From contig OZ245049.1 of the NCBI GenBank assembly GCA_965224465.1, positions 3,810,001 through 3,842,000 on the forward strand: a DNA stretch of 32,000 nucleotides. Direction: 5' to 3'. Below are positions 6,338-24,792 of this stretch, one piece after another. Below the pieces are notes generated by a model that did no database searches, was not told where the DNA came from, and saw only the letters and a program-made list of their open reading frames with translations. Positions within the stretch are counted from its first letter, which is position 1; the number at the start of each line of letters is the position of its first letter. Source of the DNA: Flavobacteriaceae bacterium (GTDB taxonomy: Bacteria > Bacteroidota > Bacteroidia > Flavobacteriales > Flavobacteriaceae). The translations under genes were made by a program, and so were the position numbers.

Positions 6338-7534
6338 ATGGCGAGAAAAAATATCGATTTGTTAATAGTGAAATATTTTGACAATCAAATTACAGAAGTA
6401 GAGTTATTAGAGTTGCAAACGTGGGCACATAAAAATAAATCAGCTTTTAAGAGGGCTGTACAGTTGGATTTGGACATTCAAAAAAGTGTGAGTTCTAATA
6501 TGAATTCAGAAAAAGGTTTTGAAATATTCAAAGAAGAAATAACGTATGGTAAAGCAAGAGTGATGACACTATCAAAAAAAAGGTATTTAAAACAATTTTT
6601 GAAATATGCCGCACTTATATTGACTCTGTGTACTTTAGGATCATGGTATTTTTTCAGGAGTAATGAACGGAAACCTGCAATGGTTATAGTAGGAGTGTCT
6701 AAGGAAATTAAATTGGAGTTGGGAGACGGTTCTGTAAAAATTATTACAGAGGGGAAAGCGCAACAAATTCTAAATAATAAAGGAAAACTTATAAGTACTC
6801 AAGGAAAGGAAGTCCTTACTTATACCGCAACATCAACTAAAATGGAAATTTTAAAAGAAACGTATAATACTTTGTCTATTCCTTATGGAAGGACATTTAA
6901 GATAGTGCTGTCCGATGGTACAAGAGTAGCTTTGAATGCAGGCTCTTCTTTGCGATACCCTATTCGTTTTTGGAAAGAAGGACCGCGGAGAGTTTATTTA
7001 GATGGAGAGGGGTATTTTGAGGTAACTAAAAACACGGCTCAACCATTTATTGTCACTACAACTACACATGATATAAAAGTATTAGGGACTCGTTTTAATG
7101 TTAACTCGTACAAGGAAGAGAACACGATGGAAACTGTTTTGGTAGCGGGTGCAGTCGAAATTTATTCGCTAGATAAAACCTCAAAGAAAAACAAGGTGCT
7201 GTTGTTAAAACCAAAACAAAAAGCCTCTTGGGATTCTCTAAAAGGTCGGGTAACGGTTAGCTCTGTAGAAACAGCACAATACACGGCATGGGTGGACGGA
7301 GGTTTGCTATTTGTGAATACCCCGTTTTTAAAGATGATTCGACAAATAGAACGTCATTATAATGTGACTATTCAGAACAATTACAAGGCATTAGAAGGGT
7401 TTGTTTTTACAGCTACTTTTGAGCATGAAAATATTGATCAAGTGATGCGTGCAATCAAATTGTATGGACAGTTTTCTTATTCAATAAATAACAATCATAT
7501 AATCATTAATCAAACTTTAAATAACAAACGCTAA
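6338..7534 (+). CDS. FecR-family anti-sigma factor / transmembrane sensor
   Basis: 398 aa. N-terminal anti-sigma region, one TM helix (YAALILTLCTLGSWYFF) and a periplasmic FecR domain (YGRTFKIVLSDGTRVALNAGSSLRYP...VYLDGEGYFEV...HDIKVLGTRFNV). It is adjacent to an ECF sigma and an STN-bearing SusC. Confidence 0.9.
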   Translation: MARKNIDLLIVKYFDNQITEVELLELQTWAHKNKSAFKRAVQLDLDIQKSVSSNMNSEKGFEIFKEEITYGKARVMTLSKKRYLKQFLKYAALILTLCTLGSWYFFRSNERKPAMVIVGVSKEIKLELGDGSVKIITEGKAQQILNNKGKLISTQGKEVLTYTATSTKMEILKETYNTLSIPYGRTFKIVLSDGTRVALNAGSSLRYPIRFWKEGPRRVYLDGEGYFEVTKNTAQPFIVTTTTHDIKVLGTRFNVNSYKEENTMETVLVAGAVEIYSLDKTSKKNKVLLLKPKQKASWDSLKGRVTVSSVETAQYTAWVDGGLLFVNTPFLKMIRQIERHYNVTIQNNYKALEGFVFTATFEHENIDQVMRAIKLYGQFSYSINNNHIIINQTLNNKR

Positions 7535-7583
7535 TGAGAAAATAAGGACTATTATTTTTTACAAAAATAGACTTCACATAAAA

Positions 7584-7613
7584 AATCGGAAAATGTTGCA
7601 GCATTTCCCGATT
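7584..7613. terminator. Hairpin between the anti-sigma gene and repeat copy 1; the U-tract is only on the minus-strand side
   Basis: aatcggaaaatg / catttcccgatt pair at 11 of 12 positions with a 6-nt loop. The A6 run just upstream on the + strand gives a T-tail only for leftward transcription. Confidence 0.35.
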
Positions 7614-7628
7614 AGATGAAGTGATTTA

Positions 7629-7761
7629 ATACCAAATACATTTCCAAGTAACGGTTTAGAAATGGAATTATTTTTTGTTTTAGTTATCGTTTTATTTTTC
7701 AAAAACGCTAGAACGTAAAATAAACTATTTATATCGGTCATTTTGGATTGTAATTGGTGTA
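7629..7761 (+). repeat. MITE-like interspersed repeat, copy 1 (133 bp)
   Basis: ATACCAAATACATTTCCAAG...TTAGAAATGGAATTA...AAATAAACTATTTATATCGGTCATTTTGGATTGTAATTGGTGTA. The imperfect terminal inverted repeat is ATACCAAnTACA / TGTAnTTGGTrT. It is homologous to copies at 15359, 17451 and 24441. Confidence 0.85.
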
Positions 7762-7796
7762 AAATATTATTAAACCACAATTAACACCACAAAAGT

Positions 7797-10700
7797 ATGA
7801 AAAAAATCATATTTAATGGGGCGCTACATATAGTTCCCACTAAAATAAGTTTAAAAATGCGACTTACGACACTGTTACTGATAGTTTCACTGTTTAAGAT
7901 TCAGGCAAATACGTATTCTCAAAACACAAAAATTACGTTGAATTTAACAAACGTAACTGTATTGGATGTTTTGGAGAACATTGAATCTAAAAGTGAATTT
8001 AATTTTTTTTACAATAGCTCCGATTTTGATTTAAATAGAAGAGTTACCACACAAGTAAAAAAGAAATCTATCACTTATATTTTAGATCAACTATTTAAGA
8101 ATGTACCTGTTTTACATGCCGTTACAGATAGGCAAATTGTATTATATCCCAATCCGAATCCTAGTGTTCAAATAGAGCGTTCTGTGATTCGAAAAGCAAT
8201 AGAAATTAAAGGGATTGTAACAGATTCACAAGGGACTCCCTTGCCTGGGGTGAGTGTGGTTATTGTAGGGACAAGTAAAGGAGTAGAAACCGATTTTGAC
8301 GGGAATTTTACTATTGATGTGGATCTAGGAGATGTGTTAGAATTTTCATTTATTGGGATGAAAAAGGCGCGTGTTACTATAGGGATAAACACATTTATAA
8401 AAGTACAGTTAGAGGATGATGCAGCAGCACTGGAAGAAGTAGTTGTTGTGGGCTATGGCAGACAGAAAAAAGTAAATTTAACGGGAGCTGTAGGGATAGT
8501 CACAACAAAAGATATTGAAAACAAGCCCGTAACTAGTATTTCTAGCGCACTCCAAGGGACGGTTCCAGGAATGACTATTATTCAAAATAGTGGACAGCCA
8601 GGAAAAGATGGTGCGCAAATAAGAATACGTGGTATTGGGAGTTTAAATTCTTCTTCTAGCCCAATGATATTGGTGGATGGAATTCAATCTACTATGAATG
8701 ATATTGATCCAAATGATATTGCGAGTATATCAATTTTAAAAGATGCTGCTTCAGCCGCTATCTACGGAGTTAGAGCAGCGAATGGTGTCGTGTTAATTAC
8801 TACAAAAAAAGGAAGTAATACGCCTTTAAAACTCTCGTATAACTCATATGTTGGCTGGCAAAAAACCACACGTGAACCTAAAAAATTCTCATCAGCTGAG
8901 TATGCCGAGTTGTATAACGAAGCTTTGGTAAATTCTGGGAAACCTGTACTGTGGAGTAGCAGTGATATTTTGAAATTTAAAGACGGAAGTGATCCTGATA
9001 AATTTCCAAACACCAATTGGAGAGATTTGTTATATACGCAGTCGGGTATGCAACAGCAACATCACCTTAATGTTAAAGGAGGGAATAAAATATCACAATA
9101 TTCTTTTTCTATGGGGTATTTTAATCAGGAAGGTTTAATAAAAAATACAGCTACAAGAAGATATAATTTAAGAACTAATTTTAATCATAAAGTAAGTGAA
9201 AAACTGGATGTAGGAATGAATATTTCTTATAGTTTGACAAATACAATAGAGCCTACAAATCCATATGCAGGTGGATTAAGTCAAGTTATAAGACAGGTGA
9301 ATAGGATTGCTCCTTGGGTGCCTTATAAATACTCTGATGGTTCTTATGGTTATATTGGGGATGGGAATCCTATCGCTTGGTTAGAAAATGGAGGTACGAG
9401 TGATGTTGATTTATTAAGGAATACCATAATTGTGCATGGGGATTATAAAATACTTAAAGGACTTAAAGTGAGAGGACTAATGTCTTATAAAACCTTGTCT
9501 CATGTTATCGAGTCATTTACTAAAAGCATTCAGTTTTATGATTTTATATCTAAAGATCCTTCGTTATTTCAAGGGCCTAATGAGCAAAATGATTACCGTG
9601 CCAACACCTCTACCTTGGTTTTGAGGTATTTATTTGAATATGAAAAAGAAATAGAGGACCACACTATTAAAATATTAGCAGGGTACGAACAAGAAAACTA
9701 TAGGTTTGATTTTACCAGAGCTATTAGGAAGGATTTTTTAAATAATAAGCTTAAAGAAATTAATGCGGGATCAACTGATGGTCAAATTGGAAAAGGATCT
9801 GGGGAGGAATTGGCGTTGGAGTCTTATTTTGGAAGAATCAATTATGGCTATAAAGATACATATCTTTTAGAAGCAAATTTAAGACGTGATGGGTCTTCTA
9901 GATTTGCAAAAGATAATAGGTGGGGATTGTTTCCTGCTGTTTCTGCTGGATGGAGAATTTCTGAAGAAAGTTTTATGGAGGAATTGGAATATGTTTCCAG
10001 TTTAAAATTAAGAGCGTCTTGGGGATTGTTAGGGAATCAAAAGACTTCTTCTGGGTATTATCCTAGTATTTCAAGTGTTTCTTTGGGAGAAAATTATAAT
10101 TTTGGAGGAACAATTGCTCCAGGGGCATCCATTATAACGCCGGGAAATGCGGATATTCAATGGGAAACTACCGAGACCTATGATATTGGTTTAGACCTAT
10201 CATTATTGAATAATAGAATAACATTTTCTACAGATTATTTTAAAAAGAGAACAACCGATATTCTCTTGGATCTTCCTGTGTCAAAAATATTTGGGCTAAG
10301 TGCTCCAATTCAAAATGCGGGTACTGTAGAGAATAGTGGTTTTGAATTTCAGTTAGGTTTTAAAGGGAGATTGGATAAGGTTACCTATAATATTTCATCT
10401 AATATTTCATTTATAGATACAGAAATTATGGATTTAAAAGGTATAGATCCTGTTGTGAGAACCGGTGGAAGAACCGTTTGGGAAGTAGGCTTGCCTATAA
10501 ATACCTTTTATGGATATCAAAGTATGGGAATTTTTAATACAGCTGAGGAAGTGGCAAATCACGCGACCCAAAGAAGTGGAACCGGACCAGGGGACATTAT
10601 CTATAAAGATCAAAATAAGGATGGAAAGATCAATGGAGAAGATCGTGTAAGTTTAGGAAGTTGGGATCCAGGAATTACCTATAGTACAACCGTTAATTTG

Positions 10701-15356: not shown

Positions 15357-15358
15357 TA

Positions 15359-15522
15359 ATACCAACTAAAATTCCAAGTGACGGTTTAGAAATGGAATTA
15401 ACTTTTGTTTTAGTTATGTAAAACAAAAGCTAAGGATAGCCTTAGTTATCGTTCTGTTTTTTAACAAGTCTAGCATGTAGAACAAACTATTTATATCGGT
15501 TATTTTGGATTTTAATAGGTAT
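15359..15522 (+). repeat. MITE-like interspersed repeat, copy 2 (164 bp, expanded centre)
   Basis: Starts 2 nt after the GH2 stop. It has the same ends and core blocks as copy 1. The centre carries two extra hairpins (cttttgtttta/taaaacaaaag and ctaagg/ccttag). Confidence 0.85.
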
Positions 15523-17443: not shown

Positions 17444-17450
17444 AAATATA

Positions 17451-17579
17451 ATACCAACTACATTTCCAAGGGATGTTTTAGAAATGGAATTATAGCCTTA
17501 GCTATTGTTCTGTTTTTCAACAACGCTAGCACGTAAAATAAACTATTTATATTGGTTGTTTTGGAGTGTAATTGGTATA
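17451..17579 (+). repeat. MITE-like interspersed repeat, copy 3 (129 bp)
   Basis: ATACCAACTACATTTCCAAGG...TTAGAAATGGAATTA...AAATAAACTATTTATATTGGTTGTTTTGGAGTGTAATTGGTATA. A by-eye alignment to copy 1 gives roughly four-fifths identity. Confidence 0.85.
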
Positions 17580-17695
17580 ATGTTCTATTAAATGGTATCT
17601 CTTTCACTATCTATTTGTAAAAATAGCTTAGCATAACAAAGGCTATGCTAAGTTATTTTAACTTTGATATTGTAACTACTAATTTAATTTCAACC

Positions 17696-17723
17696 AGAGA
17701 TACCAAATACATTTGGTGTCTCT
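17696..17723 (-). terminator. Hairpin immediately downstream of the RND pump stop codon
   Basis: agagatacc / ggtgtctct forms a 9-bp stem (one G-U pair on the + strand reading) with a 10-nt loop. It begins 1 nt after the stop at 17725-17727. No strong U-tract is present. Confidence 0.4.
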
Positions 17724-23845: not shown

Positions 23846-24292
23846 TTATCCTAAGTATGGTGGGCCTCTTAAAGGAGTTTCTCCAATTATGGGAGCCTTG
23901 TAAAATACGTATTTGTAATGTGTAAATTGTGTGTGAAGTCTCTTCTGCTGAAATTGCAGGCTAGTTGTTATAAGAGGGTTACATACAGTTTTTAGTTGTT
24001 TTTTTACGTTTGTAGAAACAACTTGTTTTGCAATCTGAATACATTCATGAGAATGTACAGATTGTAAATGATGCTGTATTAAAAAATCAATAGAAAATCG
24101 AAATGCAGTTTTTTCTTGTTTTTCAGATGCAGGGTGATGGTGATCCGATTTGTTATGGTGATGCGTTGTCTTATGCGTGTTATCACTTATTTTTTGATGT
24201 AAATGATGCGCATGTGGTATTGCATTTAAAAGTGTTGTCAAAACAAGGACACTTATAAAAAACCAAGACTTTAGTTGAATCATTTTTTTCAT
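23846..24292 (-). CDS. His-rich small protein with an N-terminal signal/anchor; first gene of the metal-efflux operon
   Basis: 148 aa. Hydrophobic N-terminus (WFFISVLVLTTLL), then AIPHAHHLHQ...HKTTHHHNKSDHHHP, two Cys (HSHEC, VCNP) and the C-terminal ...GETPLRGPPYLG. No known domain was recognised with confidence. Confidence 0.6.
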   Translation of the reverse strand: MKKMIQLKSWFFISVLVLTTLLNAIPHAHHLHQKISDNTHKTTHHHNKSDHHHPASEKQEKTAFRFSIDFLIQHHLQSVHSHECIQIAKQVVSTNVKKQLKTVCNPLITTSLQFQQKRLHTQFTHYKYVFYKAPIIGETPLRGPPYLG

Positions 24293-24440
24293 CGTTGGTA
24301 AAAATACATATTTTTTTTGAATCCCTCATCGAGGGTTTAGTTTTCTGTGGGTTGGTCTCGAAACAGAAAAAAACATAAAGGAAGTACACCGTGTGTTCTT
24401 GGAGTGAGCGTGTTGATTAAAAGAGACGACTAATACAAAT

Positions 24441-24601
24441 TATACCAACTACAATCCAAAATGACAGATATAAATAGTTTATTTCACGTTCTATTGTTGT
24501 TAACAAATAGAACGATAGCAAGGATATCCATTCATTTTTTACCTAGCTATAACAAAAACTATTTCCATTTCTAAACCTTCACTTGGAAATGTGTTTGGTA
24601 T
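24441..24601 (-). repeat. MITE-like interspersed repeat, copy 4 (161 bp, inverted orientation, expanded centre)
   Basis: The reverse complement reads ATACCAAACACATTTCCAAGTGAAGGTTTAGAAATGGAAATA...GAAATAAACTATTTATATCTGTCATTTTGGATTGTAGTTGGTATA. Confidence 0.85.
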
Positions 24602-24792
24602 AAGTAGATTATTTACTGCGTTTTTTAGTTCTTATAATTGGCTGTAAACGATGTGGGTTATGTTGCTAATGAATGCTTATTTAGGTGCGGTAGTGTTGTG
24701 AGCTTGTTTGTTGAGTGGACTTGCTGTTATTTATTCTTTTTATAAACTCAGGGTTTTGTGTTTTTGTTAGGAGAAAATAAATTTCTTTCGAG

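Follow-up and report, generated by a model that had tools for sequence, protein, structure and literature searches.

The repeats present in four copies within a 32,000-nt window of a Flavobacteriaceae genome very probably represent a fossil, non-autonomous DNA transposon (MITE) of the IS630-family (Tc1/mariner-type, DDE) clade. The window, by which we mean the whole stretch of DNA analysed, spans positions 3,810,001-3,842,000 of the source genome (G000), a single 5.24-Mb contig with a G+C content of 33.6%; the four congeners used for comparison are designated G001-G004. Besides the repeats, the window holds an IS4/IS701-like transposase, an ECF sigma/FecR-like anti-sigma pair, a susC/susD pair, GH2 and sulfatase genes, an RND efflux operon, asnS and rpoN.

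An initial annotation of the window had proposed a repeat family of four members, and this proved sound: the four stretches can be aligned end to end, and each is matched by a covariance model (R1) made solely from relatives in other genera. The sizes given there (133, 164, 129 and 161 bp) belong to real copies but take in one to three flanking bases, and the limits used here exclude the duplicated target. Copy 1 (7630-7759, + strand, 130 bp, 60.9 bits) is an internal-deletion form that by alignment has lost ~29 nt of the central hairpin. It is flanked by a TAA target duplication (7627-7629 and 7760-7762) and lies between a FecR-like anti-sigma gene (6338-7534) and a susC-like gene that starts at 7797, filling half of the 7535-7796 spacer and ending 37 nt ahead of the susC start codon. 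Copy 2 (15360-15521, + strand, 162 bp, 75.1 bits) is full length with a variant centre; its left flank TAA (15357-15359) abuts the TAG stop codon of the GH2 gene, and its right flank TTG is a decayed duplication. Copy 3 (17452-17577, + strand, 126 bp, 37.8 bits) is again an internal-deletion form, with ~33 nt missing in the alignment, and sits between TAA duplications (17449-17451 and 17578-17580) in the convergent gap separating the sulfatase gene from an acrB-like gene. Copy 4 (24443-24600, − strand, 158 bp, 70.2 bits) is full length and occupies a divergent gap, 150 nt upstream of a gene for 148 amino acids (23846-24292); its flanks, TTA (24440-24442) and TAA (24601-24603) as read on the + strand, are now discordant. 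In G001 and G004 the gap orthologous to that of copy 4 is ~300 bp shorter, with divergence too high for a clean empty site.

The list of four copies was correct as far as it went, but it missed a fifth. At 17585-17697 (− strand), 7 nt after copy 3, the covariance model detected a decayed relic (33.6 bits; E = 4.6e-5 for the window as a whole) that belongs to a divergent subfamily of the same superfamily and has been reduced to its core (model positions 25-136), both ends being gone. The core of this relic is nearer to the cross-genus consensus (AGCATAGCCTTTGTTATGCT). Its presence indicates that the source genome was colonised by more than one subfamily. Every copy in the window is intergenic. 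With four copies in 17 kb, the family is roughly twice as dense here as in the genome on average (4.7 segments per 32 kb).

The family extends far beyond this region. A search of the source genome with a profile of the four copies (nhmmer) returned 788 hits, which resolve into 765 non-overlapping segments, 396 of them full length, at 641 loci; this number is far beyond chance, and the family makes up 1.7% of the genome. The usual form is 159 bp long, begins TACCAA, ends TTGGTA and contains no conserved ORF. According to the initial annotation the centre varied between copies such that structure rather than sequence was kept there; this did not hold, since the central sequence is conserved in the genome consensus and the shorter forms, copies 1 and 3 included, are internal deletions. 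Mini forms of ~60-90 bp also occur. The description of the family as non-coding and intergenic was borne out genome-wide: 97.6% of the element bases lie outside ORFs and 2.4% inside long ORFs, compared with 81% for the genome as a whole. Convergent gene gaps, a class that constitutes 13% of gaps, contain 30% of the loci (p = 2.5e-30). The imperfect terminal inverted repeat noted earlier is likewise real (TACCAAATACA / TGTAATTGGTA), but it corresponds to pairs 1-19 of a hairpin and is thus merely the outer part of a fold that takes in the whole element.

Both target duplications and empty sites, which the initial annotation had proposed to look for, were found. Full copies in the source genome are flanked mainly by TTA or TAA triplets, and the two flanks agree in 64 of the 83 TWA/TWA cases (TTA/TTA in 40 and TAA/TAA in 24, against 19 discordant; Fisher p = 2.8e-6); in other genera 52 of 58 such flank pairs are concordant. 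The duplication is of 3 bp, since the middle base of one flank varies together with that of the other. The orthologous FecR-like/susC-like spacer is present without copy 1 in G002 and G003, and there the empty site is precise, reading GATT-TAA-AACATT where the source genome has GATT-TAA-[element]-TAA-AATATT. The absence of copy 1 from this spacer means that the control region of the polysaccharide-utilisation locus differs between species. These data show that the MITE targets TTA/TAA for insertion and that the three target bases are duplicated. Inverted ends, a 3-bp duplication, an empty site and hundreds of copies together uphold the original assignment to the MITE class.

At many loci the element is found in arrays, in which repeated A units (positions 1-52) are followed by a full copy and then by repeated B units (positions 53-159), with TTA/TTA or TTC/GTA as the triplets at the junctions. 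The TTA/TTA junctions are as expected if one copy had inserted at the TTA inside another. Nested insertion alone does not explain the unequal numbers of A and B units, so that a further step such as unequal exchange is needed, and we propose that the arrays arose by insertion at the internal TTA followed by such exchange. The longest arrays, at positions 101784-102708 and 933489-934248 of the contig (G000:C1), contain 3 A and 7 B units and 2 A and 6 B units, respectively; their B units are near-identical with a period of 111 bp, and they look like recent local amplifications of half-elements.

No transposase capable of mobilising the family had been evident in the window, and this observation extends to the entire source genome, where no element was found that combines the MITE ends with a transposase gene. 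Pairs of 5′ and 3′ ends spaced 250-6000 bp apart enclosed either ordinary genes or an IS1182-like element inserted in two MITE copies; relaxed 11-nt ends with matching flanks yielded nothing, and clustering of stray ends turned up nothing beyond additional mini deletion forms and coding repeats that matched by chance. None of the multi-copy ISs of this genome, which were assigned to families by eye from their proteins (IS30 with 69 copies, IS66, IS4/IS701-like, IS256, IS1595, IS1182-like and ISL3), has TACCAA-like ends. Profile searches of G000 gave no match to DDE_Tnp_4 (PF13359) or DDE_3 (PF13358) and only sub-threshold matches to NF033545; the DDE_Tnp_1 (PF01609) elements are unrelated ISs with other ends, and Y1 transposase genes (PF01797) are present but none is bracketed by the MITE. 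The IS at the window start (3-1229, − strand) carries DDE_5/DDE_Tnp_1 domains and the ends ACTCAAGTTTCGCAC, confirming that it is unrelated to the repeats, as had been recognised before. The sole trace of an IS630-type transposase in the source genome, detected by tblastn, is a decayed relic at 3348903-3349231, with 33-39% identity over 60-76 amino acids, many stop codons and unrecognisable ends. Three of the congeners also lack a transposase with matching ends, although at a genome completeness of 62-82% absence is weak evidence there.

The source genome is otherwise very rich in ISs, with ~69 copies of an IS30-like element of ~1155 bp, ~27 of an IS66-like element of ~2025 bp and ~18 of an IS4/IS701-like element of ~1595 bp, to which the IS at the window start belongs; IS256-, IS1595- and ISL3-like elements and a group II intron are carried as well. 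Two separate MITE copies are interrupted, each at a different point, by the IS1182-like element (1745 bp, 522-aa transposase, 5 copies, ends TAGGGCTTGCTG...; G000:C1:1623145-1624891 and 2761797-2763541).

A full-length IS with the same ends, absent from the source genome, does exist in other Bacteroidota. The outer ~20 nt of the MITE match the inverted ends of IS630-family elements of 1.12-1.13 kb: the first ~19-21 nt are 86-89% identical to the IS630 ends in G011 and Ekhidna, and the source genome consensus matches the left end of the G011 element at 13 of 14 positions. Elements with such TACCAAT-type ends were delimited in Ekhidna (locus L201, 1379-2513, flanks TTA/TTA) and in three Flavobacteriaceae genomes, G011 (L206, 1424-2547, TAA/TAA), G400 (L211, 1384-2507, TAA/TAA) and G114 (L210, 963-2081, TTA/TTA). 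The Ekhidna genome is MITE-rich and contains 36 DDE_3 matches; its IS630 elements are ~1130 bp long, start with TACCAATTAGATTATAA and finish with TTATAATCAAATTGGTA. The L201 copy encodes an intact transposase of 328 amino acids that scores 150.9 bits against NF033545 (IS630 family; cut-off 100) and 60.5 bits against DDE_3. It is the one copy there with a single 328-aa frame; in most of the others (L194-L205, contig CBDHDT010000193.1) the transposase is split into frames of ~130 and ~190-225 amino acids, which could reflect frameshift-dependent expression or decay. An IS630 fragment in G024 has decayed too far for its ends to be visible.

The MITE and the transposase also occur together more often than expected. 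Among 401 Flavobacteriaceae genomes, the MITE is present in 24 and the transposase in 14, and both are found in 5, where 0.84 would be expected (Fisher p = 7e-4); in 19 of the 24 MITE-bearing genomes of this sample no partner is detectable. By BLAST, the similarity between MITE and IS is limited to the ends and does not continue further in. Derivation of the MITE core from the IS by deletion, or as the antisense of the transposase leader, was considered and rejected, as the core shows neither similarity nor complementarity to the IS630 interior. Taken together, IS630-type ends and a TWA duplication place the repeat among the IS630-type MITEs, in a clade whose target duplication is TWA and not TA.

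The MITE family is present in all four congeners and patchy elsewhere, occurring in 19 of 302 sampled Flavobacteriaceae genera, and a literature search found no description of it. A pattern search with the conserved interior recovered at least 120 stretches; among the matches listed, those from Flavobacteriaceae include Aquimarina, Maribacter, Algibacter, Winogradskyella, Bizionia, Nonlabens, Tenacibaculum, Polaribacter, Psychroflexus and Tamlana, and those from beyond include Ekhidna, Saprospiraceae and Bacteroidales-type genomes. The pattern also matched contigs labelled as a Nanoarchaeota MAG and as Eggerthellaceae (L069 and L089), probably by chance or because these are mis-binned Bacteroidota contigs.

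Across this range the element is conserved in two ways. In an alignment of 35 diverse members, pairwise <88% identical, the blocks TTGAATTATTTTTT, GCATAGCC.TAGCTACGG and AAAAAGAAAC are nearly invariant, whereas the arms vary widely and yet remain complementary. The source genome consensus forms one hairpin across its full length, with an internal loop TTGAATTA / GAAAC and a minimum free energy as RNA of -55.9 (with flanks) to -59 kcal/mol (z = -8.8), compared with -38.6 for the other strand. RNAalifold predicts 56 pairs for the 35 members, 42 of which show compensatory changes; with this structure 92.6% of cells pair, and sliding the partners lowers the figure to 43-52%. Covariation scores 0.461, compared with no more than 0.10, and none of 500 shuffles attained the observed values. 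Among the pairs with compensatory changes are stems lying 50-58 nt from the ends, a distance at which transposase binding to the ends cannot account for them. Moreover, the fold is specific to one strand: G·T combinations fill 215 cells and A·C combinations 25 in the 35-member alignment, and the + strand is the better folder in all 35 diverse members (-47.0 versus -29.7 kcal/mol) and in 202 of 214 copies from the source genome. The covariation that the initial annotation had proposed to test for in the central hairpin thus turned out to be real and to involve the whole element, but it is seen only between diverged subfamilies in other genera.

Resident copies behave differently. Full copies in the source genome are on average 89% identical to the consensus, and have diverged by 11.2% where paired and by 10.4% where unpaired; copies co-oriented with transcription retain pairing no better than antisense copies (p = 0.67). 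Equal divergence and the lack of an effect of co-orientation indicate that resident copies decay neutrally, which argues against an RNA function maintained by the host. Neutral decay, combined with the lack of an intact IS630 transposase, marks the MITE in this genome as an orphaned fossil. Constraint on the fold is thus seen between subfamilies and not among resident copies, from which it follows that the constraint most likely acts on propagation.

The orientation of the MITE tracks replication, independently of gene direction. With the origin at ~2.96 Mb and the terminus at ~0.31 Mb, as placed by cumulative GC skew of G000, the well-folding strand has the leading-strand sequence, i.e. is on the lagging-strand template, at 437 of 641 loci (437:204, p = 2e-20), and the polarity is seen in convergent (135:59) and divergent (45:24) gaps. 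It is 179:44, whatever the gene direction, at 0.75-1.75 and 4.25-5.0 Mb, regions that were chosen post hoc; where the genes of these regions are on the lagging strand, copies still follow replication (43:13). Across copy ages polarity runs from 64% to 77%, without a significant trend (p = 0.21). It is not evident in G301 (46 loci) or Ekhidna, which were scored without known origins and so provide no real test. Replication-orientation biases of ISs differ by family, with IS630 mixed, and have been attributed to contact with the replisome (Gomez et al, 2014; PMC3971601), so that polarity in itself is not unprecedented.

Part of this evidence could be read differently. The 3-bp TTA/TAA duplication is the hallmark of Tourist-like MITEs, which would be moved by an IS5-family or PIF/Harbinger-type transposase, and a TNA/TWA duplication is best known from the ISfinder groups IS1031/ISL2 and from PIF/Harbinger, elements with which the present MITE also shares short inverted ends and AT-rich targets. 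This explanation has, however, largely been refuted already and is extremely improbable: the source genome lacks any DDE_Tnp_4 match, neither a DDE_Tnp_1 element nor another multi-copy IS in it has TACCAA ends, and the MITE ends match IS630-family elements with the identical duplication. Unlike Tourist/IS5, both the ends and the co-occurring transposase are of the IS630 family (NF033545, DDE_3) rather than DDE_Tnp_4/IS5. Polarity and the covarying one-strand fold would instead suit a single-stranded-DNA element of the REP/BIME or IS200/IS605 kind, in which a Y1 (HUH) transposase recognises the folded strand on the lagging-strand template and the apparent duplication is a cleavage triplet carried by the element; Y1 transposase genes are present in the source genome, the tandem array units are bounded by TTA sites, and a strand-specific hairpin, tolerance of G·T pairs and a replication orientation bias are all shared with REP/RAYT and IS200/IS605. 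Yet the same ends and TWA flanks bracket complete IS630 elements encoding a DDE transposase, the Y1 genes are not bracketed by the MITE, and the MITE combines a genuine target duplication with terminal inverted repeats and a partner of the DDE type, whereas to our knowledge IS200/IS605 elements and REPs have neither duplications nor terminal inverted repeats. We therefore consider a single-stranded element of this kind highly improbable.

It had also been suggested that the repeats are a family of small RNA genes. In this case the copies would be kept by the host as RNA genes or as cis-acting RNA elements (terminator, stabiliser or processing site), with mobility secondary. The strong, strand-specific RNA fold with its many G·U pairs, the conserved unpaired blocks and the enrichment downstream of genes in convergent gaps (30% of loci versus 13% of gaps) speak for this reading. 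However, Rfam 15 gave no match at the gathering score and only chance-level matches up to E 10, and no conserved Bacteroidota promoter motif was seen when the alignment consensus was inspected by eye. Orientation follows replication even against genes in the strongly polarised regions, sense copies pair no better than antisense copies, and paired and unpaired positions are equally diverged. The suggestion of small RNA genes was thus not upheld, and host-kept RNA elements are very unlikely.

As an IS630-type MITE, the family resembles RUP of Streptococcus pneumoniae, a bacterial MITE derived from IS630-Spn1, and the eukaryotic Stowaway MITEs, which pair with Tc1/mariner elements. All are short, non-coding and of high copy number, can form a hairpin of the whole element, target a TA-containing site, and have ends in common with an IS630/Tc1-mariner partner to which the interior is unrelated. 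The present MITE differs in its 3-bp TTA/TAA duplication, in the absence of the partner from the genome, in a core conserved over several Bacteroidota orders with covarying stems and a strict one-strand fold, and in its replication polarity in G000. Like ERIC/IRU of enterobacteria and Correia/NEMIS of Neisseria, it is an imperfect palindrome of the 100-160 bp class that lies between genes, often where transcription passes, and comes in variants with internal deletions or insertions. We know of no transposase partner for ERIC/IRU or Correia, and these are restricted to narrow taxa, whereas here a partner family is identified and the one-strand fold is phylum-wide. The arrays recall BOX of S. 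pneumoniae (boxA-boxB(n)-boxC) and the BIMEs of E. coli in being modular, with variable tandem sub-units per locus; here, however, the sub-units are two parts of one MITE, split at the internal TTA, and the TTA/TTA junction triplets point to nested insertion and then unequal exchange.

We propose that an IS630 transposase acting in trans moved the MITE by cut-and-paste in a past burst and was lost later, and that the copies in G000 no longer move and are decaying. The inner ~120 nt would not derive from the IS and would constitute a conserved core within the whole-element hairpin, the fold of which would be preserved on one strand only, by compensatory changes between subfamilies. Since resident copies are unconstrained, the fold most likely aids propagation and not a host function. 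It may act through a single-stranded state, either on the lagging-strand template at the fork or as a cruciform that joins the ends of a very short element; the replication polarity in G000 fits this idea. Several points weigh against an IS630-type MITE. Neither G000 nor three of its congeners contains a transposase with matching ends, most MITE-bearing genomes of the sample have no detectable partner, and mobilisation in G000 is deduced from co-occurrence and shared ends. In addition, textbook IS630/Tc1-mariner elements duplicate the 2-bp TA and not 3 bp, and the MITE departs from this canonical duplication. Finally, double-stranded cut-and-paste gives no obvious reason why the fold should be kept on one strand or why a core without similarity to the IS interior should be conserved. 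A more speculative version, which we regard as unlikely but worth stating, is that this IS630-type MITE clade, and perhaps its transposase too, uses a folded single strand in transposition, most likely the lagging-strand template at the replication fork. If true, a strand-specific step coupled to replication would be common to a DDE cut-and-paste element and the IS200/IS605-type elements, and this would account both for the fold and for the 80% polarity over large parts of the chromosome.

As a MITE, the repeat is ordinary selfish DNA of a kind already known. It adds to the case for an IS630 clade with 3-bp duplications, elements that annotation may confuse with IS5/Harbinger. The covariance model can be used for masking or annotating these MITEs in Bacteroidota genomes, where unmasked copies may pass as regulatory RNAs or terminators. 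The source genome provides a clear example of a MITE family that has outlived its transposase and still occupies 1.7% of the genome. Conservation of the core over Bacteroidota orders, with covariation on one strand, is unexpected for a double-stranded cut-and-paste element, and the conserved one-strand fold opens the question of why MITEs are hairpins to direct test.
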